Virus record (IMG/VR): IMGVR_UViG_3300035704_000396
Span: 6,651 to 70,650 of that record
DNA from: a virus
Length of the DNA stretch: 64,000 nt
Direction: 5' to 3' (one strand)
Shown: piece after piece, positions 1 through 17,615 of the stretch
Numbering within the stretch: position 1 is the first letter of the stretch
Layout: each line of letters opens with the position of its first letter
Program-made: the position numbers and the translations under genes
Notes under the pieces: generated by a model
Databases searched by the model: none
What the model saw: the letters and a program-made list of their open reading frames with translations, nothing else
What the model was told of the DNA's origin: nothing

Positions 1-169
1 CCACCCAGGCGATGTAGCCGCCGCAGTACTTGGCGGTGGGCGTGGCGTGCGGGCCCGGCGGGTGGTGTTCGATCAGGCCGACCACGCGGCCGTCCTGTTC
101 GGTCCAGACGAACGAGTGGCCATCGCCCAGGTCGTGTTCGTGGTCGCGGGCCAGGTAGGTGGTCGGCAT
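1..169 (-). CDS. hypothetical phage-type protein, partial (runs off window start)
   Basis: Manual translation from ATG at 169: MPTTYLARDHEHDLGDGHSFVWTEQDGRVVGLIEHHPPGPHATPTAKYCGGYIAWV; follows the peptidase stop in the same orientation. Confidence 0.65.
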   Translation of the reverse strand, partial: MPTTYLARDHEHDLGDGHSFVWTEQDGRVVGLIEHHPPGPHATPTAKYCGGYIAWV

Positions 170-184
170 GTCAGGCCGCCCTGC

Positions 185-925
185 TCACATCACCGGTTGG
201 ACGACGTCCCCGCCCAGATGCAGCAGCAGGTCGACCTGGTCCCAGGTGAACGTGGCCGATCCGCCCACCGCCCAGGCGTCGCCCCACGAGTTGTCCATCT
301 TCACCTTGCGGTTGGCCACGTCGATCGCCGAGCACACGAACTGGTGGCCCCCGGCCAGGCCGGAGTCCTGGTCGACGTCCATCGACCCGTCCGAGTTGGG
401 GGTGAACATGGATTGGAACCAGGGCACCCCGAACGACACCGGGCCGGCGACCAGCAGTTGCAGCATCGTGTTCAGGTCGGTGGTGTGCTGCCAGGAGGTG
501 ATCCACCCGTTGCGCTGCAACGCCATCATCGACCACGGCCCGGACGATCCGGTGTCGGTGGGCGGGTAGTGGCCGGGGATCTGCGAGTCGTCGATGCGGG
601 TTTCGAGTTCGTACAGCGAGACGCAGGCCGGTTCGGTGAAGTTCCATCCGGTTCGGTGGTAGGGCTCGGTCATCAGCACGCCCAGCGCGCCGTTGGCGGT
701 GCAGGAGCCGATCTTGCCCTGGTTCCAGATGGTGGTGAGCCGTTGGTGGGCGGCGTCGGCCAGTTCGGCGTCGCCGTCGCGTTGGGCGGCCAGTTCGGGC
801 AGCAGCAGCTGGTGCATCTGGTGGCGGCCCAGCCGGAACGGGTTGGTCGGATCTTCCAGCAGCACCCGGAACAGCGGGTTGCGCGGCGCCTCGGTGGCCT
901 GCTCGGTCGTGTCGGTGGACATCAT
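185..925 (-). CDS. papain-like (C1 family) cysteine peptidase
   Basis: NQGKIGSC (catalytic Cys), GGHQ (His) and DNSWG (Asn) papain motifs in the correct order. Confidence 0.85.
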   Translation of the reverse strand: MMSTDTTEQATEAPRNPLFRVLLEDPTNPFRLGRHQMHQLLLPELAAQRDGDAELADAAHQRLTTIWNQGKIGSCTANGALGVLMTEPYHRTGWNFTEPACVSLYELETRIDDSQIPGHYPPTDTGSSGPWSMMALQRNGWITSWQHTTDLNTMLQLLVAGPVSFGVPWFQSMFTPNSDGSMDVDQDSGLAGGHQFVCSAIDVANRKVKMDNSWGDAWAVGGSATFTWDQVDLLLHLGGDVVQPVM

Positions 926-950
926 TGCTGGTGGGGCCCTTCCTGTCGGG

Positions 951-1559
951 TTACTGGCAGACGGTGCGCGGTGGCGCCGGGTAGGGGTGTTCGGCCTGCT
1001 GTCGTTTCAGCGCGGCCCGTTTGGCCTGGTACTGGGCGATGGCCCGTTGGAAGTCGCCGGCGCCGACCTGCCCGCCGTGCAGTGCCGCGCCGACCGCGGT
1101 GACCAGTTGGTCCAGGGCGTCCTGCGCGGTGGCCGAGGCCGTGGAGCGGGCGTCGATGGCGTCGGCCAGCCGGTTGCTGTAGCTGGACTGGCAGTGGGTG
1201 AGCCGCTGGGTGGCCTGGCCTTCGACGACGCCTTGGGCGACGGTGGCGATGGCCAGCAGCAGCACCACGATCGCGGTCATCCGCTGGCTGGTGACACGGT
1301 CCAGGCGGCGGGCCCAGCGCCGGGCCCGCCGCTCTGGCTGCGGCGGCGGCGATGCTGGCGGCTGGTCGGGCGTGGATGGCATGTCAGGGCCTCCGCTGGC
1401 GTGCCCGGGTCGGTCCGGTGTGGTCGGCGGTTCGGGTTGGACGGCCTGGGCGATGTGGCGGACGTCGCGGGCGGTGCGGCCCACCACCAGGCCGCCGACG
1501 AACCCGGCGCCGGCCCAACCGGCCGACTGGACCAGGTAGGCGATCGGGGCGGTCATCAC
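951..1559 (-). CDS. membrane protein, possible lysis accessory
   Basis: Two hydrophobic segments; overlaps the stop of the upstream ORF; lies next to the peptidase. Confidence 0.6.
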   Translation of the reverse strand: MMTAPIAYLVQSAGWAGAGFVGGLVVGRTARDVRHIAQAVQPEPPTTPDRPGHASGGPDMPSTPDQPPASPPPQPERRARRWARRLDRVTSQRMTAIVVLLLAIATVAQGVVEGQATQRLTHCQSSYSNRLADAIDARSTASATAQDALDQLVTAVGAALHGGQVGAGDFQRAIAQYQAKRAALKRQQAEHPYPAPPRTVCQ

Positions 1560-1942
1560 CGCTCCCCCACGTCATCGGCGGTCTCCTGGCCGGGTCGAGC
1601 GCCGGGCCGATCGCCCGGTGGGTGTTCGGGTGGGTGTTGGCTGTGGTTGCGGGTGGGCGGGTCGCTGCTGCGCCGGTGCGGATGGCGCTCCGGGCCGTAT
1701 GCCTCCGCCGGTTCGTCCGGCTCGTCCTGGTCGCCGGCGATGAGCCGTCCAAGTCGCCGGCGCGCGTCCTTCAATCCGTCCTCGCGCTTTCCCACTGCGA
1801 AGACGGCACCCACCGCCAGCGCGAAGACCGCGTTGATGCTGGGGTCGTGCCGGCTGGGGTCGATGAAGCCGATCACGACGTTGCCGGCCCATACCGCCGC
1901 GATGAGCAACGTCAGCGCGATCATCAGCGGTCGCGGCAGCAT
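1556..1942 (-). CDS. small two-TM membrane protein (holin-like candidate)
   Basis: Two hydrophobic helices then a charged tail; translationally coupled. Confidence 0.55.
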   Translation of the reverse strand: MLPRPLMIALTLLIAAVWAGNVVIGFIDPSRHDPSINAVFALAVGAVFAVGKREDGLKDARRRLGRLIAGDQDEPDEPAEAYGPERHPHRRSSDPPTRNHSQHPPEHPPGDRPGARPGQETADDVGER

Positions 1943-1948
1943 GGCCGG

Positions 1949-2248
1949 TCACCGCCGCCGTCTGCGGTGGGCGACCACGACGGCGACCAGACCGAACGCG
2001 ATTCCCGTGCTGTTGAGCCACAACCGGTAGGTCACCGGCGCGCCGACGTGTGTCCATTCTGTGCCGATGGCACTGGCACACAGCAACGCCAGCGCCAGGT
2101 AGCCCAGCCGCAGCTGCGGTGTCGTGTCCTCCGGGTCGATGAGTCTTGCCCCAGCCCCGGCCGCCAACATGCAGCCACCCAGCACGCAGAACACACGCAG
2201 CACGTCGGCGAAGGCAAGCCACGGGGTGGCGAACGGGGTGTGGGTCAC
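1949..2248 (-). CDS. small three-TM membrane protein (holin-like candidate)
   Basis: Three hydrophobic segments, poly-Arg C-terminus, GGAGG RBS. Confidence 0.55.
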   Translation of the reverse strand: MTHTPFATPWLAFADVLRVFCVLGGCMLAAGAGARLIDPEDTTPQLRLGYLALALLCASAIGTEWTHVGAPVTYRLWLNSTGIAFGLVAVVVAHRRRRR

Positions 2249-2353
2249 CGGGTTCCTCCCGGATCGGGACGGGGCACAGGCGGGTGTCGACGGCTGCCCA
2301 GGCCGGGGATGGCCGGCCTGGGCAGCGTCCTGGTGGTGGGCGGTTGTGCACGG

Positions 2354-3220
2354 TCACCGGCCCACCCCCGCCGGCGGCGGGCCGGCCCGGCCGCTCGAAG
2401 CGGGGGTGGGCACGGTGACCGTGGCGGTGGTGGTCGCCGAGTGGTCGCCGATGTCGGTGAGGGTCACCGTGTAGGTGCCGGCCGCGGTGTAGGTGTGCTG
2501 CACCGGCAGCGGCACGACGGCCGTGTCCACCATGTTGGTGTCGCCCCAGTGCAGTGCGGCGCCGTAGGCGCCGAACCCGGCCGGGGTGACGGTGACCGTC
2601 ATCGGGTCGCTGGTGGAGGGTTGCACCGTCAGGCTCAGCTGCAGCGGGCAGCAGTTGCCCCGCACCAGTTGCGCGGTCAGCACGGTGGCGGCGCAGCCGC
2701 CGTCCGGGCCGTCGTGGTGCAGGCTGACGATCTGCCAGTTGACGCCCTGTTGGCCCAGCGGGCCGCACAGAAACGCCCGGTGCAGCGCCATCGCGTCCTG
2801 CACCATGCCGAAGGCGTACCCGTCGACGGTGGCGACGTCCGGCGCGGCGGCGGTCGGGTCCAGGGTGGGGGCACAGCGGTGCACCCCCAACTCCACGGTC
2901 AACAACAATTCGCCGGTGTTGCAGTTGCTGGGCACCCGGTTCAGACCGGACACCCCCAGCTCTGTGGTGGCATTGGTCATCCGCAGCCACGCCGAGCCCT
3001 GCCCGGCCGGCTGGGACGGGTCGTCCTCGCAGGTGCAGTCGCACCAGTCGGCCGGCATCGGGGTGTTGCCGGCGTAGATGACGAACACGCACACCGGCCG
3101 CTGGCTGATGCCCAGCTGGGCGGCGGCGGACAGCCGCAGCTGTTCCAGCACGGGCCACAGCACCGGTTCGGTGTCGGCCATGGTGGGGGCGTCGGCCTGG
3201 TCGGGCGGGCCGGCGGTCAT
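2354..3220 (-). CDS. tail terminator-like protein with C-terminal PKD/Ig-like domain
   Basis: ATGA overlap at 3217-3220; GQGSAWLR, ELGVHRC and GPDGGC motifs typical of actinophage neck proteins; HWGD...HTYTAAGTYTVTLT is a PKD signature. Confidence 0.65.
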   Translation of the reverse strand: MTAGPPDQADAPTMADTEPVLWPVLEQLRLSAAAQLGISQRPVCVFVIYAGNTPMPADWCDCTCEDDPSQPAGQGSAWLRMTNATTELGVSGLNRVPSNCNTGELLLTVELGVHRCAPTLDPTAAAPDVATVDGYAFGMVQDAMALHRAFLCGPLGQQGVNWQIVSLHHDGPDGGCAATVLTAQLVRGNCCPLQLSLTVQPSTSDPMTVTVTPAGFGAYGAALHWGDTNMVDTAVVPLPVQHTYTAAGTYTVTLTDIGDHSATTTATVTVPTPASSGRAGPPPAGVGR

Positions 3221-4206
3221 GGTGTGCTGTCCGGGGTGTAGACGCCGGTGGTGGCCACCGACACCGGGCCGGGCAGGTCCGGGGAGTAGACGGCGGCCGG
3301 CGAGCGGTGCCGGTAGGGGTTGGCCGCCACCACCCACAGGTCCACCTCGGTGATCCCCGTCCGCCCCTCGTCCAGGAAGGACTGCGGGTCGATCTGGTAG
3401 GACACGCCCTGCCGTTGGATTTCGGTGACCCGCGCGGTGATCCGGCAGGCGGCGCCGGTGCACGCGGCGACCAGTTCGGCGGCGAAGATGGCGGCGGCGC
3501 GGCGGCCGCCGGTGGGCACCGGGTGGCCCCGCCAGAAGCTGATGCCGAACGTGCCCTCCTGCGACAGGGGCCGGTCCAGGTGTTGGCTGACCGGCCAGCG
3601 GCCGCCGTCGGTGCGGCCCAGCCGGTCGCCGTTGCCCAGCCACAGCAGCGTTTCGTCGACGGCCAGGCCGTCGACGGTGACGGTGATGCCGCAGCGGGGC
3701 ATCCCGTCGGGGGCGGGCGGCGTGTCGGGTGGCTGCCAGAACACCGGGCCGGGCAGCGGCACCTGGGCGACCGGGCCGCAGCCGCACAGGTCCGGGTCGG
3801 GGTGGTGGCAGCCGATGCGCAGCCACGATTGGCCGCCGGGTAGCGCCGGGTTGAGGTCCAGGCCCGGCCGCCGGCCGTGGAACAGCCGCGGCGGCCGGCA
3901 GGGCCGCACCGTTTCCCGGCACAGCCCGTAGCGGCCGGCGGTCAGGCGCCACAGGATCTCGGAGGCGGTTTCGGCGGCGGCGCATTGCACCGCGTTCCAG
4001 GTGGCCGGGTCGGCGGGCAGCTGCGAACAGCTGGCGTCCAACGGCCAGGTCCGGCACGGCCCGCCGGCGGCCGGGTCCAGCGCCCAGGTGCCGTCGGGTT
4101 GCAGATCCGGCCTGTTCGGCGCCGGGGTGTCGGTGCGCACCGACCCGGGCGGGGTGGTGGGCGTCGACGGGGTCCAGCCGGGTCGCCGCCCGGTGGGCCG
4201 GGTCAT
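3217..4206 (-). CDS. head-to-tail adaptor
   Basis: LWRLTAGRYGLC..TVRPC, RQGVS and TGITEVDLWV..ANP motifs; position after the major tail gene. Confidence 0.75.
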   Translation of the reverse strand: MTRPTGRRPGWTPSTPTTPPGSVRTDTPAPNRPDLQPDGTWALDPAAGGPCRTWPLDASCSQLPADPATWNAVQCAAAETASEILWRLTAGRYGLCRETVRPCRPPRLFHGRRPGLDLNPALPGGQSWLRIGCHHPDPDLCGCGPVAQVPLPGPVFWQPPDTPPAPDGMPRCGITVTVDGLAVDETLLWLGNGDRLGRTDGGRWPVSQHLDRPLSQEGTFGISFWRGHPVPTGGRRAAAIFAAELVAACTGAACRITARVTEIQRQGVSYQIDPQSFLDEGRTGITEVDLWVVAANPYRHRSPAAVYSPDLPGPVSVATTGVYTPDSTP

Positions 4207-5384
4207 CCGGTGCGGCGCCGGCCGCCGCCCTTGCCGCCGGTGTCGCCGCCCGGTTTGGCACCGCCGCTCGGGCCGGCCGGGCTGGCCTCGGAGCTGCTGT
4301 CGGCGGCCGTGTCGGCGGCCGTGTCCGGTTGTTCCAGGCCGGACGCGGCCGGGGTGAACGTGGTGGACACCGGCGTCGCCCCGTTGCCCGGGGTGAACGT
4401 GATGGTCTGTTCGATGCCGGCCTGGTCGGCGGCGTAGGCGTGGCTGGCGACGCCGACGGTGGCGGCCAGCATCGCCGCGATCGTGCCGTCACCCCAGTCG
4501 ACGGTGCCCGCATTGCCCACCAGGGCGAAGTTGGACACGGTCAGGGTGGCCGAGAGGGTGTCGCCGACGGTGGGTGCGGCCGCGAGCTGCGGCGCGGTCG
4601 CGCTGGGGTTCCACAGCGGCCGGCCGCCGCAGGTGGTCACGGGCGGGGCGACGGTGACCAGTTCGCCGTGGAAGTGGTCCGGGTCCGAGGAGACCAGGTC
4701 GATGGCCGGCCAGTCGAAGCCGGGGTCGATCGGGTCCAGCAGCGGCGCGGGCATGCCGTCGATGTCGCGGGTCACGTTGTAGGGGCCGTGTCCCCACAGG
4801 CTGCCCGGCTTGGTCTTGCCTTTGAGCTTGAAGCTCATCGGATTGTTTTCCACGGTCAGGCTGTCCATGCCCAGGGCGATGCAGTAGGGCAGCAGGAAGT
4901 AGCCGCACACCTGGAAGGTGGGGTCGTTGGGGTCGCCGGTCAGGCACGCCTGCCCGGCGCCGGGCCCGGTCACCTTGGGCCACAGTTCCAGGGCGTAGCC
5001 CAACGTGTTGGACACCTGCTGGCCGATGCGGAACCCGGTGGCGGTGCGCCGGGAGGCGTCGGTGACCGTCTTCCAGGTCCGGTTGAGCATCACGTACAGC
5101 GCCGGATCCACCTGGCAGAACTCGAAGTTCAACGCGATGTACTTCACGTTGTCCGGGCCGCGGTCGTTGATGCACAGCTCACCGGCGGCGTTCTTGGCGC
5201 TGTAGTCGTCGCCGTCCTCCACCTCCGGTGCCAGCTCCACCGACACGAACCCCGACGACACCACCTGGCTGTTGGGGCCGTATACGGGTCGCCCGCAGGC
5301 GTCGACCAGGGTGGCGCGCATCCGGCTGGCGCCGATGTAACCGGCACACAGGGCGGCGGGCACGGGCAGCGTGGGAGCGGTCAT
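4203..5384 (-). CDS. major tail protein with C-terminal PKD-like domain
   Basis: Start MTAPTLP coupled (TGATG); RATLVDACG, SGFVSV, KNAAGELC, FCQVDP and ALELW motifs; C-terminal VDWGDGT. Confidence 0.8.
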   Translation of the reverse strand: MTAPTLPVPAALCAGYIGASRMRATLVDACGRPVYGPNSQVVSSGFVSVELAPEVEDGDDYSAKNAAGELCINDRGPDNVKYIALNFEFCQVDPALYVMLNRTWKTVTDASRRTATGFRIGQQVSNTLGYALELWPKVTGPGAGQACLTGDPNDPTFQVCGYFLLPYCIALGMDSLTVENNPMSFKLKGKTKPGSLWGHGPYNVTRDIDGMPAPLLDPIDPGFDWPAIDLVSSDPDHFHGELVTVAPPVTTCGGRPLWNPSATAPQLAAAPTVGDTLSATLTVSNFALVGNAGTVDWGDGTIAAMLAATVGVASHAYAADQAGIEQTITFTPGNGATPVSTTFTPAASGLEQPDTAADTAADSSSEASPAGPSGGAKPGGDTGGKGGGRRRTG

Positions 5385-6331
5385 CAGATCTCCTCGGCCG
5401 GGTCGGTGGCGCCGATGTGGCCGGGGGGGGCGCCCCGACCGGCGACATCGGCTGTGATGGGGGTTTGGTTCAGGGCGGCCACGAACCCGGGCCGTGTCAG
5501 CGTGGTTTTGGCGGCCGCGGTGCCGCCGGCCCAGTCGGCGACGTAGAGCCGCTCGGACAGCAGGGAACCCAGGTTCTGGCTGCGGTCGAACGCGCCGCTG
5601 GCCCATTCGCCCGGTTCGATGATCGGTCCACGGCGGACGGTGACCTGGCCGGTGGCGTACAGCCATAGCGCGCCGTCGTCGGGGTCGGTGACCGAGGTGG
5701 GCGGCGTGGCCGGGTAGCCGGCGCCGAACACCCACGTCGACCCGAGCAGGGTGGAGGCGGTGGGGCCGGCGACGAACACCTGCCGCTGCTCGCGCAGCCG
5801 GGGCGCTGACCACAGCGGGGCGTGCAGCACACCCACGCAGCCGGTGTCGGCCAGCCACTGTTCGAGTTGGCCGACCGCGTCGACCAGCTCCAGGGCGGCG
5901 CCGCCGGCCACCACGTCGGCGGCGGCCAGGTTGGGCTGGTTGCCCAGCAACCCGGTGAACACCACCTGTTCGACCGCGGTTTCCTCGCCGGCGGTGAACC
6001 GCTGCCGCAGCTGGCGGCGGGCCACCAGTGGGTCGCGGCCCAGGACACACCGGTCGGCCGCATACACCGCGAACGGGGTGCCGGTGACCGTGCTGGTGGT
6101 CTGCTGCGCCAGTTTCTGGCCGTCGGGCAGACCGTCGGGCACGGTCGGTTCACACGAGGCCGGCCAGGGCGCCACCGCCGCCGAGGTGACCGCCTCGTAT
6201 TCGACGCCCAGCAGGGCGTGCGGTTCGACGTTTTCCAGCAGCGCGGCGGCGACGAACAGGCCGAACCGGTGCGGGCCGGCAGCAGGTGGGCTGTCGACCA
6301 GCATCCGGGGCGCCGCCACCGGCACGGACAT
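5384..6331 (-). CDS. second capsid protein (pentamer-type)
   Basis: FGLF, PFAVYA, GEE..VE, GVLH, WVFGAGY, WLYATG and ERLYV motifs; between major capsid and major tail. Confidence 0.65.
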   Translation of the reverse strand: MSVPVAAPRMLVDSPPAAGPHRFGLFVAAALLENVEPHALLGVEYEAVTSAAVAPWPASCEPTVPDGLPDGQKLAQQTTSTVTGTPFAVYAADRCVLGRDPLVARRQLRQRFTAGEETAVEQVVFTGLLGNQPNLAAADVVAGGAALELVDAVGQLEQWLADTGCVGVLHAPLWSAPRLREQRQVFVAGPTASTLLGSTWVFGAGYPATPPTSVTDPDDGALWLYATGQVTVRRGPIIEPGEWASGAFDRSQNLGSLLSERLYVADWAGGTAAAKTTLTRPGFVAALNQTPITADVAGRGAPPGHIGATDPAEEI

Positions 6332-6343
6332 CGGCGTGGCGCC

Positions 6344-8647
6344 TTACTTGCCGCGGCGGTTGGTCGGCCTGGTCGTGGCCGCCTTGGCCGGCCCGCCGCC
6401 GTCACCGTCGCCGCCGTCGTTGCCCGTCTGCGCGTCGGCGTCCGCGGCGGCGTCGCCGCTGTCGACGCGGTCGCCGGTGGCCGGGTCGTCGGCCGGGGTG
6501 GGTGACACGACGATGTTGCGCGTGGAATCGGCTGTCTCACCGGTGTTGCCGCTGCTGATGTTGACCAGGCCGGCGGTGGGCGGCGGGCAGATGTCGCGGG
6601 CCGGGCCGACCGCGCCGTTGGTGCACAGGTCGGTCAACTGCACGAGGAACGTCCGGTTGCACCGGTTGATCAACATCCAGGCGTCTTCGGTGAACGAGCT
6701 GCTGTACTTGTTCTCCTGCAGCAGCTGCGCGTCGTACTGCACGCCCAGGGTGAGCACGTTGCCCTGCGAGAGCACCCACGATCCTGCCGGGTAGGCCATG
6801 ATGTTGACGGTGGTGGGCCATCCGGCGGGCGGCATGATCCGCCCACCCACGGCGGCGCCGTCACCCAGTTCCTGCCAGTCACGCACCCACTGCACCCGCG
6901 AGCTGTACTGGGCGAACAGGGCGGCGACCTCGGCGTCGGCCACCGCGCCGAAGGGCCTGTTCCGCTTGAGCTCCAGGTCCCGCTTGACGAAGTCCTTGAA
7001 CCACTCCGGAAGCACGACCTCCAACGTGGCGTTGGGCGCCATCTTGTAGCGGTTGCGGAACCACACGAGCAGCAGCCGCAGCCGGTCCACCGCCTCCACT
7101 GCCACCGACCCGGTCGCCGTGTCCGCTCCCGACACCGAGAACGCCGGCAGCACATCGGAGTTGGCCCCGATGTAGGCCAGGTAGGTCGAGTTCATGAAGT
7201 GGTTGTGGTGCACCAGCACGTCGGAGGCGAACCGTTCCTGGCCTTCCGGGAACGTGCGGTCGCGCAGGATGTCCGACTCGATGGACAGGTAGGCCAGGCT
7301 GGCGCGGACTTCCCGCCACGTCACACACGGCCCGGTGATCGACATCTTGACGTTGCCCAGGCCGTCCCCGGGCGGGGTGTCGTCCGCGGCGTGGTGGAAG
7401 TAGGTCGGGTTGTCCAGGCCCGCGCCGGGGCTGGCCGGCGCGGCCGGGTAGGTGATGGCGGTGCCGTGCCAGCCGTTGCGGGTGGCGTCGGCGGACTGGT
7501 CGGGGTATTGCGTCCACTGTGGAAACCGGATGCCGCCGCGGGCGGGCATGCCGGTGGTGGGCAGGTCCAGCATGCCGTCGTCGGTGGCCATCGGCGGACA
7601 CAACGTGTAGTCCGTCTCCGAGGGGGTGCACCACACGTCGTTGATGGTCGAGGGCGCCGTGTCGGCCGCGGTCAACGCGCGCTGCACGGCCGCCACCAGC
7701 GACCCGCCGGGCAGCCGCCGCTCGTCGGCCACGTCGTCCAGGGTGCGGATGTCCCGGTTGTCGCCCATCAGCCGCCGATCCTCGGCGAAATGCCGGGTGA
7801 TGCGGGCGACGTTGGCTTTGATCGGCGCCGACGCGGCCTGCCCGACGGGCAGCGCGGCGAACCGGGCGCAGGCGGCCTCGCCCAGCTCCCGCACCGTCAA
7901 CTGCTGCCCGAACGTGAAATCGGTGTTCTCGGCCGATGCGGTGATCGAGTAGGACCGGGTGATCCGTGCCGGCGCCGGGTCGGCGGGCGGCGCACCCCGG
8001 CCGGACGCGACCGCGGCGGCGGTCGGGGTGCGCCGCGGCACAGGCGGCGGGGGCGCCGAGGCGGCCACCGGCAGCACGTCAGTGGCCGGCTCGGCGGTCT
8101 GTGGTGGGTCCACGGTCGGGGCGGCGGGGGCATCGCCGCCCCGAGCCGTGGACTGCGAACCTGGTGCCGGCTCGGCGCGCTGCGCGGCTGCGCCGGCCCC
8201 ACCAGGTCCCTCGGCCGGGTGTGGGGTCGCCTCGGGAAGCCCGTCGGGAGCCACCTGGCCGGCTTCCCTGGCGCCCTGACCGCCGGGCTGTTGGCCCTCG
8301 CCGGCCGGGTCCTGGACGGGTTCGGCCGGCGACTGGACGCGGTCTGCCAGGGCCGAGACCCGCTGGTCCCTCTCCACCCGTTCCTGATCCCGCTCCAGCT
8401 TCAGCCGGCGCACTGCCTCCGTGACGTCGGCGAGTGCCTCCAGCGTGTCCGCGTCGGCGGGGCGGTAGTCGCCGTCGGCGTAGAGCTCGTTGAACCGCTC
8501 GACGGCGCCACCGTCCAGTTCGGCCAGGTCCACGTCGGGACCGGCCGCCTCGACCAGCGCTGTGTAGACGGCTGCGACCCGCTGTTCACCGGGCGGCGGC
8601 GCGTCCTTGGCGGTGGCAATGCCGAGCAGCTTCTTGAGCAGATCCAC
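6344..8647 (-). CDS. major capsid protein (hexamer-type) with N-terminal scaffold-like extension
   Basis: GTG at 8647 after GGGAGG; coiled-coil plus Pro/Ala linker, then WCTPSETDY.LC, LDLP..RGG, FPE, EVVLPEW, YPAG and FTED motifs. Confidence 0.85.
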   Translation of the reverse strand: MDLLKKLLGIATAKDAPPPGEQRVAAVYTALVEAAGPDVDLAELDGGAVERFNELYADGDYRPADADTLEALADVTEAVRRLKLERDQERVERDQRVSALADRVQSPAEPVQDPAGEGQQPGGQGAREAGQVAPDGLPEATPHPAEGPGGAGAAAQRAEPAPGSQSTARGGDAPAAPTVDPPQTAEPATDVLPVAASAPPPPVPRRTPTAAAVASGRGAPPADPAPARITRSYSITASAENTDFTFGQQLTVRELGEAACARFAALPVGQAASAPIKANVARITRHFAEDRRLMGDNRDIRTLDDVADERRLPGGSLVAAVQRALTAADTAPSTINDVWCTPSETDYTLCPPMATDDGMLDLPTTGMPARGGIRFPQWTQYPDQSADATRNGWHGTAITYPAAPASPGAGLDNPTYFHHAADDTPPGDGLGNVKMSITGPCVTWREVRASLAYLSIESDILRDRTFPEGQERFASDVLVHHNHFMNSTYLAYIGANSDVLPAFSVSGADTATGSVAVEAVDRLRLLLVWFRNRYKMAPNATLEVVLPEWFKDFVKRDLELKRNRPFGAVADAEVAALFAQYSSRVQWVRDWQELGDGAAVGGRIMPPAGWPTTVNIMAYPAGSWVLSQGNVLTLGVQYDAQLLQENKYSSSFTEDAWMLINRCNRTFLVQLTDLCTNGAVGPARDICPPPTAGLVNISSGNTGETADSTRNIVVSPTPADDPATGDRVDSGDAAADADAQTGNDGGDGDGGGPAKAATTRPTNRRGK

Positions 8648-8814
8648 CGTGGGCCTCCCAGACGCACACAGGAACGAGTGTGTGCATCCGGTCACGGTCG
8701 CCAGGCGATGCGAAAAGGCTGTCACCGACCCGCTGCGGGGTTGGGTTGCCTCGTCGCGGAGGATAGCCGCGACCCCCGCACCGGGCGAATCACCCCAGGT
8801 CTGACGCGCCGGGT

Positions 8815-9084
8815 TCACCCATCCGGGGGGTCGTCCACAGTAGCCGCCCCGTAGGCAGCCTCGGCGGCGGTGTCGACGTCGGCGTGGTCGTGCGAGCCCG
8901 GCTCGTGCAGCACGCCGCCGCCGTAGGCGTGGGCCTGGCGGGCCTTCCACTCCTGGTCGAACTCGGCTTGGACGCCGTTGGGGTAGACCACTTTCCACGG
9001 TGCCCGGTTGGGGGGCACCGCTGCCGTGGCCGCCGGTGCCCGGCCAAAGTTGGTCGTGGTGAAACTGCCGCCGCAGCACGCCAT
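8815..9084 (-). CDS. small Cys-start phage protein (MACCGG...)
   Basis: GGAG/GAGG RBS; this type of small gene often sits between head-maturation and capsid genes in actinophages. Confidence 0.65.
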   Translation of the reverse strand: MACCGGSFTTTNFGRAPAATAAVPPNRAPWKVVYPNGVQAEFDQEWKARQAHAYGGGVLHEPGSHDHADVDTAAEAAYGAATVDDPPDG

Positions 9085-9088
9085 GTCC

Positions 9089-11839
9089 TCACGCTCCCTG
9101 TCGGACCCGGTTGGCGGCCGCGGCGATCGCGGCCTGGTTGGTCAGCACCCGCCGCCGCGCGGCCCGCACCCGACCGTCAGCGGCCTGCGCGGCCTGCATC
9201 TGCCGATACAACGTCCACCCGTCCAACGCGCCCCCACCGGCCGCGGTGACGTCGCCGGCGCCGGGTTCGACGTCGGGCACCACGATCCCGGCGGCCACCA
9301 GGGCGACGATCACCCCGTCGTCGGTGATGTCCGCCTCGACGGTCGGGTCGGCCAGCATCACCTGGTCGCCGGCGGCGGCCGCCAACGCGAACACGCTGTC
9401 CGGGCCCAGGTCGAACGCCGGCGCGGTGACCGCGCACGAGGCGATCAGCTCACCTTCCCGCCAGTCCCCGGACTGCGAGTAAACGTCCAAAATGGACACC
9501 TGGAACGGGGCCACTCCGGGTCGCAACGCTCCTGCCGCCCAGATGCCGTAGGCGTCTTCGCCGACCCGCACATTCGCACCGACGAACCTGGGGTCGTCGT
9601 AGTGGGCCTGCGCGGCGGTCATGGTGACCCCACCGCGGGTGGAGGCGTGCCCGCCGGTGGCGATCGGCCCGGTCAACAGGCGTGGCCCTTCCACGGTGCG
9701 CACCGGATGCCGGTGGAAGCGCGGGTAGGAGCCGCCGTGCCGGCAGCGCGGCGGCGGGATCTTGTACACCTCGTGCAGCGCGTCCCACCGGGCGATGTGC
9801 CCGAACACGCGGCCCTCGTCGGTGACGTGCAACTTGGTCGGCCCGGACAGCTGCGGGTTGTCGAACCAGGCGGCCGCCGGCAGGTCGGGCACGTTGGCCG
9901 CGACCTGCTCGGCCCACGACAGCCGGTCCCCGGCGGCTGCGGCGACCGCGCGGGGCGTGGTGCGCGTCCGGGTGCGGCCTTTGCCGCCGCTGGTCTTGGC
10001 CCAGGGCGGGGTGCGGCGCATCTTCGTGTAGTAGGCGCCGATCTTGGCTTGCACGCCGGCCTTGTCCGAGTCGGGCATGTCGGTCTGGGACAGCCGGGCC
10101 GCGGCCGCCGACACACCGGCGGGCACCGCGACCAGTTCGCCGTCGACGACGGTGGCGAACGGCAGCGAGAAGTCGCCCTGTTTCGGGCCGTCCGGGCCGG
10201 CCGCCGACCGCTGGAAGAACGCGCGCCCGTACTTGGCCCAGTCCAGGGTGCCCGACGGTCGGGTCGCCCACTTCTTCACCTTGGCGACCGCGTCGTCGCG
10301 GCTCCACCGGGTGGCCTGGTCGGCCAGGCGCAGCCGGGTCGCGCCGGACGTGGCCGCGGTGACCTGGGTGTCGTCTGGCTCGTCGACCGGTGGGCCCTCG
10401 ACCGACTCGCCGTCGACCGGCTGGCTTTCGACGTCTGCCTGGTCGACGTCCGGGCCTTCGACGTCAGGCTGCTCACCGGTCGGCTCCGGTGCCGCGCCAG
10501 GCTGGTCGCCGGGGTCGACCTGTGCCGGGCGGCTGGCCGGGTCGGCGTCGGCCGGGTCGCCATCCGGCTGGCCGGCAGCAGTGACCGGGTCGGGTCCGTC
10601 GGCCGACTGCGCGGTCGGCGGTGCCGGCGGCTCGCCTCCCGGTTCCGGCGCCGGATCCGCCGGCGGCGCGCCGGCCGGATCAACGGCGGGCGCGGTATCC
10701 GGGTCGGTGGCCGGCGCCGACGCCGGCCCCGGTGGCGTCGGCGCCGACGTCTGTGTGCTGGCGGGGCCGGCCGCGGCCACCGTGGTGCCAGCGGTCGCAG
10801 CCTTGGACACGGTTGGTCCCATGGTCATGCTCCTCGAATGGGCGGTGGACGGTGCGCTGGACAGTGCAGTGAACGCCGCGGTGGACGCCGCACTGGACGG
10901 TGCGCTGGACGCTGCGGTGGCCGTCGCGCTGACGCCGATGCCGTCCACCCAGTCCAGGACGCACCGGCACATGATCACCTGATCGGGTGCGCCGGCCGGG
11001 TCGTGTGGATAGCGCATCGACGAGCCGCCCACGTCGAAGCTCTCGTCGGCGCCGACCACCGTGCCGTCGACGTCCATGTGGGTGGGCCGGGTGCGCCTGT
11101 CCCCCACGGCCACCCACTGCTTGTAGAGGGTGTCGCCGTAGGTGCGGACCCGGGCCATCCCGGCGGCGTAGGTGCCGGCGTTGCGGGCGGCCAGCGACTC
11201 GTTGCGGGCGATCATCACCGTGCGTCCGGCCCACCGGGCCAGGGTCAGCACGTTGGCCACCCGCTCGCGCAGCAGCGCCAACGGTTCGCGGGTGCTCACC
11301 GACAGGACCATCTGGGCGACTACCGCGTCGTAGACGTCGTCGGGCCAGGACGCGTCGTTGAGGCGGGCGGCGGCGTCGGCCAGGTGCTCGGCCAGGAAGT
11401 CGTCGGCGGACAGCTCGTCGGCCTGCTGCTGCGAGAGCGTGTCGTCCCAGCCCTCCCGCCACACGGTGCCGGTGGCCGACACCACGCCGACCACGGCGGC
11501 CTGCCACACCGAGCGGTGTGGCCAGGCGTCCAGGTTGGGTGGCAGGTCGGCGGCGGCCGCGTCGGCCACGACCTGGGCCAGCTGTGCGGCGACGTCGGTG
11601 TCCCGGTCCAGCAGCGCCGCCCGTGCGGCGTGCAGGAACCGGCGCAACGCCTGCTCGACTTTCGGCTGCAGCAGCTGCTCGGCGCGCAGGACCGCCAGGT
11701 GTCCGCGCATCGCGGCCGGTAGCCACGGCTCGCGTCCAGTCGGCAAGGCACACCACCACCGAGGGTCGTGTGCCCGGTCATGGCCACCAGCCGGCACCAA
11801 GTCTGTGCTGTCGGTGTGCAGGGTATCGCCGCAGGCCAT
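9089..11839 (-). CDS. MuF-like head morphogenesis protein fused to capsid-maturation-associated C-terminal domains
   Basis: KQWVAVGDRRTRPTH...MRYPHDP..VIMCRC (MuF); LDWAKYGRAFF..LPFA domain; WFDNPQL.GPT.L.VTDEGRVFGHIA.W domain; start could instead be 11710. Confidence 0.75.
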   Translation of the reverse strand: MACGDTLHTDSTDLVPAGGHDRAHDPRWWCALPTGREPWLPAAMRGHLAVLRAEQLLQPKVEQALRRFLHAARAALLDRDTDVAAQLAQVVADAAAADLPPNLDAWPHRSVWQAAVVGVVSATGTVWREGWDDTLSQQQADELSADDFLAEHLADAAARLNDASWPDDVYDAVVAQMVLSVSTREPLALLRERVANVLTLARWAGRTVMIARNESLAARNAGTYAAGMARVRTYGDTLYKQWVAVGDRRTRPTHMDVDGTVVGADESFDVGGSSMRYPHDPAGAPDQVIMCRCVLDWVDGIGVSATATAASSAPSSAASTAAFTALSSAPSTAHSRSMTMGPTVSKAATAGTTVAAAGPASTQTSAPTPPGPASAPATDPDTAPAVDPAGAPPADPAPEPGGEPPAPPTAQSADGPDPVTAAGQPDGDPADADPASRPAQVDPGDQPGAAPEPTGEQPDVEGPDVDQADVESQPVDGESVEGPPVDEPDDTQVTAATSGATRLRLADQATRWSRDDAVAKVKKWATRPSGTLDWAKYGRAFFQRSAAGPDGPKQGDFSLPFATVVDGELVAVPAGVSAAAARLSQTDMPDSDKAGVQAKIGAYYTKMRRTPPWAKTSGGKGRTRTRTTPRAVAAAAGDRLSWAEQVAANVPDLPAAAWFDNPQLSGPTKLHVTDEGRVFGHIARWDALHEVYKIPPPRCRHGGSYPRFHRHPVRTVEGPRLLTGPIATGGHASTRGGVTMTAAQAHYDDPRFVGANVRVGEDAYGIWAAGALRPGVAPFQVSILDVYSQSGDWREGELIASCAVTAPAFDLGPDSVFALAAAAGDQVMLADPTVEADITDDGVIVALVAAGIVVPDVEPGAGDVTAAGGGALDGWTLYRQMQAAQAADGRVRAARRRVLTNQAAIAAAANRVRQGA

Positions 11840-11854
11840 GGTCGGCGGTGCGGC

Positions 11855-12265
11855 TCAGGCGGCGGGTCGGCCCAGACAGCCCGATGCGTCGATCATCCTG
11901 GCCAGCACGCTGCGGCTGTGGTCCTTGCCCGCGCACACGGCGGTGCGCAGGTAGCATTCCAACGCTTCGCGCACGCACTGCGCGGTTTGCGCGTCGTGCG
12001 GCGCGGTCCGGTCGTAGAAGTCCAGGGCGTGGTCGAGCAGGGCGTCGATGTCCATGCCGGCCGCGGAGATCACCGTGTGCCGCTGGAAGCGGTCGACCGA
12101 GCGCAGCGGCCCGGCGTGGTGGCGGGCGGCGCGGCCCACCTTGTGCATCAGCCTGCCGCCGACGATCTCCAGGGCGTGCAGCGCGGCCAGTTCGGCGTAG
12201 GACACGACCCATTCGCGGTAGTCGTCGCCGGCGCGGTCGGGGGTGTGGTGGTGGGACGTGGTCAT
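11855..12265 (-). CDS. stand-alone protein resembling the C-terminal helical domain of actinophage portals
   Basis: AELAALHALEIVGGRL...HTVI...DALLDHA...ALECYLR..G.DH pattern; occupies the portal position; GGAG RBS. Confidence 0.5.
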   Translation of the reverse strand: MTTSHHHTPDRAGDDYREWVVSYAELAALHALEIVGGRLMHKVGRAARHHAGPLRSVDRFQRHTVISAAGMDIDALLDHALDFYDRTAPHDAQTAQCVREALECYLRTAVCAGKDHSRSVLARMIDASGCLGRPAA

Positions 12266-12281
12266 CGGGGTTGTTCTCCGG

Positions 12282-12662
12282 TCAGTCTGGGTCGGCGGCG
12301 GGGTTTTCGTGTTCGGCCAGCCAGCCCAGCACGTAGGCGGCGGCCAGGATCAGGACGGGGATGCGGTACCAGGGCGAACACCCGAACACGCGTCCTAACA
12401 AGACGACCACCGCGCACCACCAGAACCCGACGCACCAGTCGCAGGTCAGCAGCGAATGCAGCCACTGCCGGATGCCGGCGGCCCAGCGCCGGGTCGGCGG
12501 CGGCACGTTCGCCTTCGCGGCCAGGGCTCGCCGTTGCGGCCGGCTGTAGAGCACCCAGGTCAGCACCACCCGCCGGGCCGGTGCGGTGATCGTGTCGGTG
12601 ATGGTCAGCCGGGTCAGTCTCGCGGCCGCGAGGGCAACCACCACCAGTAGAAACAGTTTCAT
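12282..12662 (-). CDS. DUF1360-like membrane protein, first gene of the virion operon
   Basis: ARLTRLTITDTIT and LLTCDWCVGFW motifs; TAGGGT -10-like box 8 nt before the ATG (possibly leaderless). Confidence 0.75.
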   Translation of the reverse strand: MKLFLLVVVALAAARLTRLTITDTITAPARRVVLTWVLYSRPQRRALAAKANVPPPTRRWAAGIRQWLHSLLTCDWCVGFWWCAVVVLLGRVFGCSPWYRIPVLILAAAYVLGWLAEHENPAADPD

Positions 12663-12796: not shown

Positions 12797-13591
12797 CTAG
12801 CCGGCTTGAGTGTCCAACTGGTCATATTCGCGGCGTAGCCGCTCGCCCAGCGTGCACCCGTCCCGCACCACCGGATCAGGTGACGCCGTAGCGCCGAGCA
12901 GGAACACCGCATACCCGATCGCGGCCGCGAACCCCCGCGTCGGCACCGCCCCCATCCCCTCACCCACCGCGTCGATCGCCTCCACCAGGCCAGCCTGCCG
13001 CGACGGCGCCACCAACCCGACCAGCTGGTCGCGGTGATCCACCAACATGTCCGCCACCACCAGCAGCTCGGTCCGCCGCGCCACCAGCCACTGCCCGACC
13101 GCCCCGGCCGCCGGCGCCGGCACCGGCCGGCCCCGCTCCCGCAGCACCACCCGCCGGTTGTGGATAGCCTGGCTGGTCGGAAACCCCAACGGCCCGCCGT
13201 AGCTGGCCGGCCGCGCCCCGGCCGCCACCCCCATGTCCAACACCCATAGCGACCGGGCCTCGTACCGGGCCTGCGCCTGCTGCCGCGCCCACTCCACCAA
13301 CACCGCCACATGCGGCAGTTCCGCCTGGCGCACCGCAGGCTCCACCGACACCGCCGGATCCGCCACGTAGGACAGCACCGCGTCCACGTCGTCGCCGTCG
13401 ACCACGTGCGCCGGCCACCACACCGACAGCCGCGGATCCCCCGCCTCGGCCCGCACCGCCCGGATCCCGGCCACCGCCGCCACCACGTCATCCCACCCGT
13501 AGACGCAGGTCAGCTCGGCGCGGCGCCGCCGCACCCGGCCCGTCCCGGGCCTGCCGCCGCCGGCCCGCCGACCTGTCGACCGTGCCGCCAC
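12797..13591 (-). CDS. hypothetical protein
   Basis: AGGAGG about 10 nt before GTG 13591; protein-like composition. Confidence 0.55.
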   Translation of the reverse strand: MAARSTGRRAGGGRPGTGRVRRRRAELTCVYGWDDVVAAVAGIRAVRAEAGDPRLSVWWPAHVVDGDDVDAVLSYVADPAVSVEPAVRQAELPHVAVLVEWARQQAQARYEARSLWVLDMGVAAGARPASYGGPLGFPTSQAIHNRRVVLRERGRPVPAPAAGAVGQWLVARRTELLVVADMLVDHRDQLVGLVAPSRQAGLVEAIDAVGEGMGAVPTRGFAAAIGYAVFLLGATASPDPVVRDGCTLGERLRREYDQLDTQAG

Positions 13592-13736
13592 CGCACACCA
13601 CCCTCCTGCCGTACATAGCCTATGTACGGCAGGGCTGGGACCGGGCCGACATGCCGGTGAAGGCTCGACTTCGGTCGTCACTGAACGCACAGTGCTAGTC
13701 ACCCGACCGCCGGGCGTGGCCAGCAGCCCCCCCCGA

Positions 13737-14714
13737 CTATGCCTCGACCAGCAGTTTCCTGACCTCGGCGAGCACGGCCGGCGGCAATCCGGCGCGCAGC
13801 GCGTCCACCACCTGCTCCGGGCCGCTGTGCCGGCGGATGGTGACCGGCTTGACCGTGTGCAGCTCGTCATCGGGCACGTCGACGTCCCGGTCCGCGTCCA
13901 GGCGACCGGGCGTGTAGGGCGTGCCCAACTCCAGCAACCGCCGCTGCTGGTCGTGGTCCAGCCTGGCCACCGGCAGCGCCTTCTCCACCGTCAACGTCTG
14001 GTCGCTGACCATGCCGCGGAACTCGTCGATCAGCTCCAGCAGCTGCAGCCGCTGGTTGACCTGGGTGTGGGACATGCCCAGCCGCCGGGCCAGCTCCCGC
14101 CTGGACAGGCTGCCGTCCTGCAGAATCGCCGCCATCTCGGCGCCCTCGCGGACCGCGTCAAACGGCTTGCGCTGGTAGTTCTCGATGATCGGCGCTTCCC
14201 GGGAGGCACGCCGCCCGGCCAGCTTGTCGTTGCGGTGGATCGGCAACCCGGCCAGGTCGGCGAAGACGGCGCCCGCCAGTCGCCGGTTGCCCATGACGAC
14301 CACCCACTGCACGCCCTCGTCGAACGAGTCGGCGTGCTCGGGGTGATGCTCCAGCCAGGCCGTCACCGACGTGACGGTCACCGGCTGCAGCACGCCGTAG
14401 GTGGTCACCGATTCGACGAACGCCGCCAGCTCAGGGTCTTGCGCCGGGTCGTATTCGCCGGCCCACCGCGGGTTGTCCGGCCGGTGCGCCAGGTGCTCCA
14501 ACAGGGCCCACGTGGCGTGCTCGGCCAGCCGGTCGGCCGCCTGCGGGGCTACCGGCTGTTCCGCTGGCCGGGCCGGCGCGCTGAGGACCCTCTGGATGAT
14601 GGCGTCGCCGTCGCTGTGCTGGCTGGACGGCAGTGGCGGCAGCACCGCGGTCTGCGCAGGCGCCTTCTGGTCGGGACGTGGTCGGCTCCCGGTTGGACGT
14701 TTCGGCGGCGGCAT
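13737..14714 (-). CDS. parB: ParB/Spo0J partition protein
   Basis: GVLQPVTV, VVMGNRRL (GxRR), IENYQRK and HTH LSRRELARRLGMSHTQVNQRL; coupled to parA (TGATG). Confidence 0.92.
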   Translation of the reverse strand: MPPPKRPTGSRPRPDQKAPAQTAVLPPLPSSQHSDGDAIIQRVLSAPARPAEQPVAPQAADRLAEHATWALLEHLAHRPDNPRWAGEYDPAQDPELAAFVESVTTYGVLQPVTVTSVTAWLEHHPEHADSFDEGVQWVVVMGNRRLAGAVFADLAGLPIHRNDKLAGRRASREAPIIENYQRKPFDAVREGAEMAAILQDGSLSRRELARRLGMSHTQVNQRLQLLELIDEFRGMVSDQTLTVEKALPVARLDHDQQRRLLELGTPYTPGRLDADRDVDVPDDELHTVKPVTIRRHSGPEQVVDALRAGLPPAVLAEVRKLLVEA

Positions 14715-15478
14715 CAGACGGCCGCCTCTGCGCCGGACACACCGGTGGACACAGCGCCGTTGTGCGCGGCCGGTGCCGCGTTGAACCCGGCGTTGGCCAG
14801 GATCTCCTCGGCCAGCTGCTGGTATTCGCCGACGTCCTCGGGGATGGTGCACACGAACTCGTCGTAGGCGACCGCGCGGGTGATCTCGGTGTCCAGCACG
14901 TCCAGGCCCAGCGCATAGGGAACGTCCGGGTCGTAGTTGCCTTCCGGGTCACGCAGATCGGTCGACAGCTCGGTCCGCGCCTTCTTGGCCTTGCCCAACC
15001 CGGGCTGCGGGCATCGGGTGAGCAGCACCGAGATCCGCAGCGTGCTGCCCGACGAGATCACCGCCTGGGCGTGCCGCACGGTCTCGACGATCCGCCGCAG
15101 CTCACCCCGCATCGGTCCGACCGGGCTGATCAGCCAGTCCGCGTACATGCAGCCGTGCAGGAAGGCTTCCGGCTGCTCCCCGCCGGTGTCGATGATGACC
15201 ACCTGTGCCCCGGTCTGGGTTTCGGCCCGGCTCGCGAAGTCGTACAGCGGCCCGTCGTGGTCGTGCCAAATGGCCAGCTGGAACGGCACCGTGTAACCGA
15301 CCCGTTGCGCCTCCTGTACCCAGTCGGTGGCCCCTCGGGTGCGGGTGTCAGCGCAGATCACCAGCACCGTGATGTCGCGGCGGGCCAGCGCGATCGCCAG
15401 CAGGATCGCTGACGTCGTCTTACCGGGACCGCCTTTCAGTGTCGCCACCAGCAGGCGCAGGACCCTCGTGTCCGTCAT
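14714..15478 (-). CDS. parA: ParA partition ATPase
   Basis: Deviant Walker A KGGPGKTT, VIIDTG Walker B; GGAGG RBS. Confidence 0.92.
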   Translation of the reverse strand: MTDTRVLRLLVATLKGGPGKTTSAILLAIALARRDITVLVICADTRTRGATDWVQEAQRVGYTVPFQLAIWHDHDGPLYDFASRAETQTGAQVVIIDTGGEQPEAFLHGCMYADWLISPVGPMRGELRRIVETVRHAQAVISSGSTLRISVLLTRCPQPGLGKAKKARTELSTDLRDPEGNYDPDVPYALGLDVLDTEITRAVAYDEFVCTIPEDVGEYQQLAEEILANAGFNAAPAAHNGAVSTGVSGAEAAV

Positions 15479-15555
15479 GGCCGTTCCTCCGACTTCCCTC
15501 ACACGCCGACGTCCCCCGGTCAGGGTCCCTGGCCCTCCTGCCCGGCGGCACCCGT

Positions 15556-16800: not shown

Positions 16801-16808
16801 TGGTTCTC

Positions 16809-17593: not shown

Positions 17594-17615
17594 CAGCGTG
17601 TCTCCTTCCAGTCCT

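Follow-up and report, generated by a model that had tools for sequence, protein, structure and literature searches.

The 64,000-nucleotide (nt) stretch analysed here, positions 6,651-70,650 of IMG/VR record IMGVR_UViG_3300035704_000396 and hereafter called the window, raises the question of how a string of intact virion genes is to be understood when no genes for DNA packaging accompany it. The string codes for a DUF1360 membrane protein, a portal-related protein of 136 residues (p136), a MuF-like morphogenesis protein, the small p89, a major capsid protein and a second HK97-fold protein (p315), a tail tube protein, a head-to-tail adaptor and the tail-terminator-like p288, and it is preceded by partition genes. 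The original prediction saw in it either part of a rearranged phage-plasmid or a domesticated capsid system. Probably, a rearranged phage-plasmid is what the incomplete record shows in part: the string would be one of several dispersed morphogenesis modules, that for head, tube and neck, of a large temperate siphovirus-like element. The host group appears to be mycelial (soil) actinomycetes, the relatives being found in Kutzneria and in contigs that their sources name as Pseudonocardiaceae genera. In what follows, G000 denotes the whole record (70,650 bases, b), of which 6,650 b precede the window; relatives carry G and L labels, L008 being the Kutzneria operon locus.

Dispersed virion modules and a divided portal in related elements

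The virion string is transcribed on the minus strand from position 12662 to 185 and comprises 13 consecutive genes, all of them open (Table 1). Intergenic junctions span -4 to +25 nt, with the exception of a 105-nt gap after the p288 gene, and no terminator-like site was seen between 12662 and 185. The tightly coupled, apparently intact operon of the original prediction is thus borne out. Relatives were located with an alignment of 16 metagenomic and genomic capsid homologues, which led to a chromosome contig of Kutzneria viridogrisea, seven IMG/VR records and five metagenome contigs; scans of viral and genome contig collections with the capsid protein alone found no close relatives. Capsid matches in phage records numbered 855, all below 60% identity and the best at ~31%.

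Five in-clade elements (G002, G003, G004, Kutzneria L008 and L009) share the order DUF1360-p136-MuF-capsid-p315-tube-adaptor-p288, at 32-59% amino acid (aa) identity; in L012, the adaptor and p288 genes fall across the record ends. The DUF1360, p136 and MuF genes are spaced by only 60-250 b in the clade and p136 is the sole gene between the other two, so that there is no room for a portal gene at this place. The comparison of capsid-homologue synteny proposed in the original prediction therefore yields a shared operon without a portal slot in five relatives. In three of the five (G003, G004 and Kutzneria), TerS, TerL, portal body and tape measure genes are present 21-78 kilobases (kb) from the operon, grouped in modules of their own; intact genes of these kinds on the same element were what the original prediction had named as its refutation. 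The other two are fragments, a 24-kb one (G005, rated 20%), which gave no portal match, and a 52.7-kb one (G002, rated 43%). The rearranged phage-plasmid of the original prediction finds its counterpart here, since an operon with no terminase, portal body, chaperone or tape measure gene beside it is the norm in this clade.

The modules are arranged consistently. G003 (64,929 b) is probably circular, its ends abutting inside the operon. It has an inverted module at 10-20 kb with the tape measure gene, minor tail genes, an endolysin and a holin, and also codes for two integrases and for ParA, whose gene adjoins the operon as it does in the window. In G004 (91,306 b), the operon occupies 6.3-19.5 kb and the tail genes 37-45 kb; the genes for TerS, TerL and the portal are at 68.1-72.1 kb, within a stretch from TerS to an integrase at 68-73.7 kb. 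On the Kutzneria contig, the operon (475-488 kb) is followed by an integrase (497-498 kb), a 42-kb stretch with few matches, the tail module (540-549 kb), the TerS, TerL and portal genes (565-568.8 kb) and a helicase block (574-577 kb). The circular order operon, tail module, TerS-TerL-portal, helicase block, operon is common to all three, and ParA-type partition genes belong to the clade backbone (G003, G004). In the window, the helicase block lies on the far side of the operon, which predicts a packaging module shortly after the point where the record breaks off on the right. The clade can be described as one of large (65 to >120 kb) temperate phage-plasmid-like elements with morphogenesis genes in three distant modules. 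Automatic provirus callers fragment such elements: the IMG/VR record of the Kutzneria element (L015) holds 29,403 b with the operon alone, out of more than 100 kb, the other modules lying 52-78 kb further on. As a consequence, "defective" or "satellite-like" capsid islands will be counted too often.

A separate observation concerns the DNA next to TerS. A protein with DAM-like-phage1 and GNAT-phage-like matches (Pfam E 5.8e-91 and 6e-52) and a ParB-like nuclease are encoded divergently there (G003 L028:7716-9281, G004 66462-67916, Kutzneria 563501-565543). The DAM-like/GNAT and ParB-like nuclease genes, at 55-71% identity, are the most conserved of the clade, and both are absent from the record of the window.

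As judged from alignments, the portal of the clade is encoded in two pieces, by genes 26-90 kb apart. In BLASTP comparisons, p136 of the window aligns to the carboxyl terminus of long portals: residues 532-645 of that of L014 (653 aa, E 5e-14), 629-734 of that of L013 (747 aa, E 7e-12) and 716-814 of that of Streptomyces violaceusniger plasmid pSTRVI02 (843 aa, E 3e-6). It aligns to positions 489-617 of the 620 of phrog_776. In L014 numbering, the p136 family covers residues ~512-650 of the long portals (L014, L013 and pSTRVI02), and the portal bodies of G003, G004 and Kutzneria cover residues ~24-526. p136 is a separate gene in G002, G003, G004 and L009 (32-52% identity). The "portal-like fragment" of the original prediction is thus correct as to homology, but p136 is, by its conservation, a gene for a separate portal domain and not a remnant. 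More distant relatives have a full-size portal at the place of p136 (L013, L014, pSTRVI02, Saccharomonospora phage PIS 136 and Gordonia phage Bakery). The portal body would have been relocated beside the terminase while the gene for the carboxyl-terminal domain stayed at the ancestral place. A narrow phrase search of the literature, which is not proof of novelty, found no phage paper on a split portal.

In Kutzneria (L008:2904-3707), DUF1360 and the p136 homologue occupy one open frame with an internal ATG at 3309 preceded by a GGGA-type ribosome site; it is either a fusion or two coupled genes. A positional correspondence of p136 to the small gene that follows the Bakery portal was also considered and was dropped, there being no similarity (E 0.61).

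Taken together, the virion genes of this clade are distributed over three modules: the head operon, the TerS-TerL-portal body group, and the tape measure, tail-tip and lysis genes, with tens of kb between the operon and each of the others. The operon would supply the MuF-protease fusion, a capsid protein with a built-in scaffold-like amino terminus, the second HK97-fold protein, the tube, the adaptor, the terminator and the detached portal domain. In the window's element, the modules for packaging and for the tail tip would lie beyond the 70.6 kb that can be seen, and particles may be produced. Genes for plasmid maintenance (ParA, ParB and Rep-like) lie on the same molecule as the virion genes, a feature by which phage-plasmids are recognised.

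Missing genes, record ends and alternative explanations

Profile scans with Pfam and PHROGs of the 16 + 85 open reading frames (ORFs) of the window and of 15 ORFs in the preceding 6,650 b detected no TerL, portal body, tape measure, tail-tip gene or integrase. A tblastn search of the record with the proteins of three relatives gave none of these genes either. Note that the search for TerL with phrog_38 is weak, as it missed the Kutzneria TerL too. The only PHROG tape-measure matches in the record hit the SLT domain of a 247-aa protein, and its only portal-related gene is p136. The lack of terminase, full portal and tape measure genes near the operon noted in the original prediction therefore extends to all 70,650 b. 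Parts of a long tail are present, namely the tube (phrog_792) and the terminator fold. Tube, terminator and portal carboxyl domain make sense only if a portal body and a tape measure complete the set, which fits a phage-plasmid whose other modules lie elsewhere.

The record, a provirus by its classification, is only a fragment: its completeness is rated at 58%, and the window's capsid protein is recorded from a contig of 122,652 b, of which ~52 kb were left out of the virus record. The left record end falls exactly on a stop codon, as a trim at a gene edge would leave it, while the right end cuts through an ORF with a third-position GC content (GC3) of 0.91. Beyond position 64000 of the window, the DNA continues by 1,404 and 1,375 letters in Logan contigs of two soil metagenome runs (X1/X2). 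As only 70,650 of at least 122,652 b are visible, absence from the replicon cannot be asserted. A trimmed record is plausible because the Kutzneria element was likewise recorded as its operon alone. With regard to the right end, the 89-b stretch at 61653-61741 has a second copy, with 6 differing letters, which lies ~1,315 letters outside the record, and the Logan contigs of both runs break at the copies; the stretch could be an assembly-stopping repeat or a site of the element.

Several results weigh against a dispersed but complete element. For the window's own element, neither packaging nor tail-tip genes were seen. When the TerL ATPase of G004 was used as a query, with all 3,537 candidates scored, the search placed clade TerLs of 58-81% identity on contigs of 116,743, 75,960, 200,350, 815,621, 64,929 and 122,036 b among the best 120 of 241 matches, five of these lengths being also among the capsid matches; within the same best 120, none was on the 122,652-b contig. 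From these comparisons, this contig probably has no separate clade-type TerL ATPase of 150-480 aa. Either the contig stops, at the cut right end, before the element does, or a loss of the gene has occurred; the favoured reading requires an element larger than its 122.6-kb contig. Provirus callers trim by gene content, and if the trim followed it here, hallmark genes are unlikely to be in the ~52 kb removed. In addition, G002 has no tail or packaging genes in the 41 kb downstream of its operon. Finally, the window's architecture differs from that of its relatives, since it lacks an integrase and has a plasmid-type block of its own (FtsK-like ATPase, SLT) which G003, G004 and Kutzneria lack. A portal search gave 14 matches, none of them on the 122,652-b contig, and is uninformative since it missed the known portals of G003 and Kutzneria.

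The TerL of the clade deserves a remark of its own. It is a stand-alone ORF of ~270 aa with the ATPase domain only, and ~40 clade TerL clusters among the best 120 of 241 matches are this short. A coupled, conserved 270-aa ORF without family match follows it (G003 L028:10654-11466, after TerL at L028:9854-10657; Kutzneria 565597-567173; 65% identity between the two). TerL ATPase and this ORF may form a split large terminase.

Whether the structural genes of the window evolve under relaxed constraint was addressed by a relative-rate comparison in place of dN/dS, because the capsid protein of the closest relative is only 57-59% identical and synonymous sites would be saturated. In a maximum-likelihood tree of eight elements (MuF, capsid, p315 and tube; 1,625 gap-free columns), the end branch of the window is 0.44, the median, with 0.57 for Kutzneria and 0.49 for G003, both of which have full gene sets. 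Nothing indicates relaxed constraint or acceleration in the window's structural proteins, so that the relaxed selection on capsid genes which the original prediction envisaged as a sign of simple decay was not seen.

The intact structural genes would also suit a plasmid that has given up part of its virion genes. Such a helper-dependent or defective derivative would have kept the head-tube-neck operon and the portal carboxyl domain and lost the packaging and tail-tip modules, and infectious particles would form only with portal body, terminase, tape measure and tail tip from a co-resident clade member. We consider this rather unlikely, and slightly more so its specific form, in which a self-transmissible (TraB-type) plasmid keeps the operon and the portal domain under selection and hijacks the missing parts from a co-resident full-length member of the clade. 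The absence of TerL, portal body, tape measure and integrase from the 70,650 b and the result of the TerL search on the 122,652-b contig speak for helper dependence, as does the plasmid-type block, which none of the compared relatives has. Being intact and not accelerated, the structural genes are still under selection. Members of the clade that could act as helpers are common enough in soil, to judge from the number of clade TerL clusters (~40 among the best 120 of 241 matches), and the window's element was itself met in two metagenome runs. The record is cut, however, where gene order predicts the packaging module, and the DNA continues there. Known phage satellites are small, with their own integrase and a helper-sensing switch, neither of which was found in the record, and we know of no described satellite type that has capsid and tube but neither portal body nor terminase. 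If the self-transmissible form of helper dependence were true, a satellite-like plasmid would spread in two ways, by hyphal conjugation and in borrowed virions, and it would be the first satellite-like phage-plasmid also to carry an actinomycete conjugation ATPase.

That the operon is a decaying prophage remnant on a plasmid, or that plasmid and phage DNA were joined in a chimeric metagenome assembly, is improbable. The record is metagenome-derived and its plasmid block is not common to the relatives; yet the 13 consecutive open genes with coupled junctions, the lengths and domain order kept relative to homologues at 32-59% identity, the average branch length and the presence of ParA beside the operon in G003 as well speak against this. 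Two runs that stem from different studies both cover positions 52001-64000, and long pieces of X1 differ there by 0-1 letters; this coverage check concerns that stretch and not the operon-parAB junction. A domesticated particle serving host or plasmid (a non-packaging shell, an agent like gene transfer agents, or a spore or surface particle) has the least in its favour and is very improbable: only the apparent lack of packaging genes in the visible DNA and the intact structural genes speak for it. The window has phage-type neighbours (DpdA, Dam, a phage helicase, phrog_421 and T5orf172), related operons sit on mobile elements whose set of virion genes is complete, and the operon's contexts are mosaic and mobile rather than one conserved chromosomal locus. 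Tube, terminator and adaptor speak against a bare shell. The domesticated shell, satellite head or spore particle put forward in the original prediction is accordingly not upheld, as there is no rate acceleration, p136 is no remnant, and tube and terminator imply a tail of controlled length. Trimming of the record combined with a clade-wide dispersed layout is most likely what makes terminase, portal and tape measure appear to be lacking; the operon is probably not that of a domesticated capsid.

Genes of the operon and of the surrounding DNA

Family assignments rest on Pfam, PHROGs and NCBIfam profile scans, and gene calls in this DNA of ~72% G+C on GC3. p315 and p288 were modelled with AlphaFold2 and compared with the PDB by Foldseek. 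The features are collected in Table 1.

Table 1. Positions of virion, partition and plasmid-type genes in the window and of packaging and tail genes in G003, with the matches behind each assignment
Feature	Sequence	Position	Strand	Evidence
DUF1360 membrane protein, first gene	window	12282-12662	-	PF07098 E 2.2e-9; phrog_781 E 3.2e-18; two hydrophobic segments
p136 (136 aa), homologue of portal C-terminal domain	window	11855-12265	-	phrog_776, weak match over its final 100 positions, E 0.0076 / 5.4e-6 in two scans
MuF-like head morphogenesis and prohead-protease-like fusion, 916 aa	window	9089-11839	-	PF04233 E 1e-12 (residues 205-295); phrog_859 E 2.8e-63
p89, small conserved gene between MuF and capsid	window	8815-9084	-	GC3 0.88 in own frame vs 0.57 in capsid frame
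Major capsid protein, 767 aa	window	6344-8647	-	NF033847 (MCP_Sipho) E 6.7e-102, above cut-off; phrog_777 E 1.7e-81
p315, second HK97-fold capsid protein, candidate penton	window	5384-6331	-	phrog_779 E 1.6e-50
Major tail (tube) protein, 393 aa	window	4203-5384	-	phrog_792 E 1.8e-60; 32% identity to Bakery major tail protein (annotated)
Head-to-tail adaptor, 329 aa	window	3217-4206	-	phrog_783 E 2.4e-59; 35% identity to Bakery head-to-tail adaptor (annotated)
p288, tail-terminator fold and C-terminal PKD/Ig-like domain	window	2354-3220	-	phrog_810 E 2.4e-9; PKD_4 E 1e-4, below cut-off
Three small genes (99, 128, 202 aa), predicted membrane helices	window	951-2248	-	hydropathy segments
Papain-like (C1-type) cysteine peptidase candidate, 246 aa	window	185-925	-	phrog_16701 "peptidase" E 5.3e-27; Pfam Peptidase_C1 E 0.29
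h357, conserved, between parB and operon	window	12797-13870	-	41% identity to G004 35879-36751
ParB-like, HTH_ParB	window	13737-14852	-	PF17762 E 1.5e-8; phrog_6218 E 2.1e-16
ParA-like partition ATPase (320 aa if read from its first start codon)	window	14714-15676	-	CbiA E 1.1e-7; phrog_164 E 2.6e-17; NF041546 E 1.5e-13, below cut-off
FtsK/SpoIIIE-like ATPase, TraB-like candidate	window	23291-25492	+	PF01580 E 3.2e-5, 23.9 bits vs cut-off 24
SLT-domain protein	window	25489-26232	+	PF01464 E 2.6e-8; directly after FtsK-like ATPase
HTH_31/DUF5753 regulator and DUF397 partner	window	30880-32071		compare annotated HTH_31 and DUF397 pair PIS_120 / PIS_119 in phage PIS 136
Replication-initiator-like protein	window	32194-33366		phrog_1032 E 3e-10
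Helicase block	window	42945-52000		beyond parAB and plasmid-type block, other side of operon
Tape measure, 882 aa	G003	16294-18942		phrog_1272 E 9e-127
TerS	G003	29305-29850		
TerL ATPase, 267 aa	G003	29854-30657		phrog_7579 E 1.8e-46; Terminase_6N E 1.2e-17
Portal, 492 aa	G003	31463-32941		phrog_776 E 5.8e-106

DUF1360 occupies the same place, before the portal, in pSTRVI02 and in phage PIS 136. The carboxyl-terminal third of the MuF protein is prohead-protease-like (phrog_18402, "head maturation protease", E 4.7e-25, residues 658-852), and its residues 637-809 are 46% identical to the product of a gene of Gordonia phage Bakery annotated as capsid maturation protease. The gene list of the original prediction was right in its identities but not in one boundary: the capsid gene starts not at 9079 but with the GTG at 8647, which has GGGAGG just before it and agrees with the 767-aa database gene call P0001, and p89, which has homologues at the matching position in G002 and G004, had been overlooked between MuF and capsid. 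The capsid amino terminus is a long coiled-coil and low-complexity region. The p315 model has a core at residues 84-283 with pLDDT of ~70-90, the mean over the whole protein being 60. Its 48 Foldseek matches with E <= 1e-3 have low TM-scores (0.22-0.35), and all 35 that were listed are HK97-fold shell proteins of phages, gene transfer agents or encapsulins. A homologue is annotated "major capsid pentamer protein" in one of 12 listed phage rows. By its predicted fold and this annotation, p315 is probably the penton protein. The p288 model (mean pLDDT 76) matches the P74-26 neck, the Milano tail-neck junction, the Mu terminator, the lambda tail cap and gpU, and T5 p142 with E values from 6e-5 to 6e-3, and its carboxyl terminus matches PKD domains.

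The three membrane genes that follow gave no family match in the profile scans. The peptidase behind them contains GSCTANG, GGHQF and NSWG, an order which we take to be that of the papain Cys, His and Asn motifs; lysis genes that follow virion operons do not usually code for an enzyme of this type. A holin-endolysin cassette made of the membrane genes and the peptidase was considered and rejected as unproven, since the peptidase looks papain-like and does not resemble a known endolysin family. Just before the window, G000 4407-6619 (L005) codes for a protein of 378 aa that matches GH25 weakly (E 0.072) and then for small proteins each with two hydrophobic helices. Its gene content makes it a candidate lysis cassette downstream of the operon, and in G002 the corresponding position is taken by an endolysin-like gene. 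The neighbouring 215-aa protein (G000 3711-4358, L005) matches phrog_5, "tail completion or Neck1" (E 5.8e-10); public annotations conflict, as its Bakery counterpart (36% identity) is labelled "tail assembly chaperone" and that of pSTRVI02 (34% identity) "HK97 gp10 family".

On the other side, parA, parB and h357 lie directly upstream of the operon on the same strand, and Pfam and PHROG matches confirm that partition rather than packaging genes precede it, as the original prediction had stated. A 16-pair hairpin with a T-run (15936-15902, minus strand) is found just upstream of parA. The true start of parB is probably later than 14852. Profile scans gave no family for h357, and the Protein Atlas no usable lead for it or for a 506-aa protein at 21671-23191. 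In the plasmid-type block, the FtsK/SpoIIIE-like ATPase has counterparts on 49 plasmid records of actinomycetes, with 28-30% identity over ~335 aa, and some of these proteins are annotated as engaged in conjugative DNA transfer. Its PF01580 match spans the Walker A region only, and no NCBIfam model passed. The "TraB conjugative replicon" of the original prediction therefore holds for the presence of an FtsK-like ATPase, TraB itself remaining a candidate with a score just under the Pfam cut-off. When positions 16000-38000 were compared with PLSDB by megablast, the sole match was 155 b long and fell within a methyltransferase gene.

The phage-type genes of the window include a phage helicase, phrog_421 and T5orf172. 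DpdA, a gene of the 7-deazaguanine DNA-modification type (PF23859 E 8.1e-58), and a phage Dam methyltransferase (phrog_111 E 1.9e-39) are found at 62111-63142 and 35566-36234, respectively, and judging from these matches the element probably modifies its own DNA. A tRNA-Ser (GCT) gene is located at 58113-58194 on the plus strand, among a block of small minus-strand genes.

Comparison with known phages, plasmids and satellites

The closest cultured relative is Saccharomonospora phage PIS 136 (JX006077.1, 94,870 b), a phage isolate whose host belongs to the Pseudonocardiaceae. Its DUF1360, MuF, capsid, p315-like, tube, adaptor and gp10-like proteins are 25-35% identical to those of the window, and it carries an FtsK/SpoIIIE gene and the annotated HTH_31 and DUF397 pair, together with WhiB and an integrase. 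It differs by its classical gene order: the portal-sized Pas4 (624 aa) lies between DUF1360 and MuF, with large tail genes nearby, whereas the window's clade has only p136 at that place. Plasmid pSTRVI02 (NC_015952.1, 191 kb) has the same order of DUF1360, portal, MuF/protease-like, capsid, p315-like, tube and adaptor genes, its capsid protein being 31-44% identical in two pieces. In contrast to the window, its portal is a single protein of 841-843 aa that includes the p136-like domain, and a tape-measure-like gene (832 aa) lies within 8 kb. Bakery (Wizardvirus) and actinophages with an annotated "major capsid hexamer protein" share the order capsid, tube, adaptor. Bakery has phrog_776, 777, 783 and 792, and related Gordonia and Microbacterium phages have phrog_779. 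The Bakery genome differs in having a contiguous block from terminase to minor tail genes, a separate protease gene and a portal that adjoins MuF, and its capsid protein is ~31% identical.

As far as the sources consulted describe them, Streptomyces plasmid-phage pZL12/phiZL12 and its relative pSLE1 are actinomycete replicons with ParA, ParB and phage particle proteins, and pSLE1 carries two integrases (PMC4487206, PMC5431353). By description, pZL12/phiZL12 resembles the window as a ParA/ParB replicon with particle genes.

Among mobile elements with an incomplete virion set, the window resembles phage-inducible chromosomal islands (PICIs). The capsid-forming ones are integrated elements of ~10-20 kb that carry portal and small-terminase functions and borrow tails. 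The window's element is at least 70 kb long and has tube and terminator, while portal body and terminase were not seen and no integrase is present in the record. Gene transfer agents differ from it, as no terminase or portal body is adjacent to its operon and as the operon occurs in mosaic mobile contexts (a plasmid-like record, a Kutzneria prophage and the apparently circular G003). Encapsulins differ by the tube, adaptor, terminator and MuF genes present in the operon. The concept of an actinomycete plasmid-phage is thus already known from pZL12, and what appears new is the clade-wide split portal and the three-module layout.

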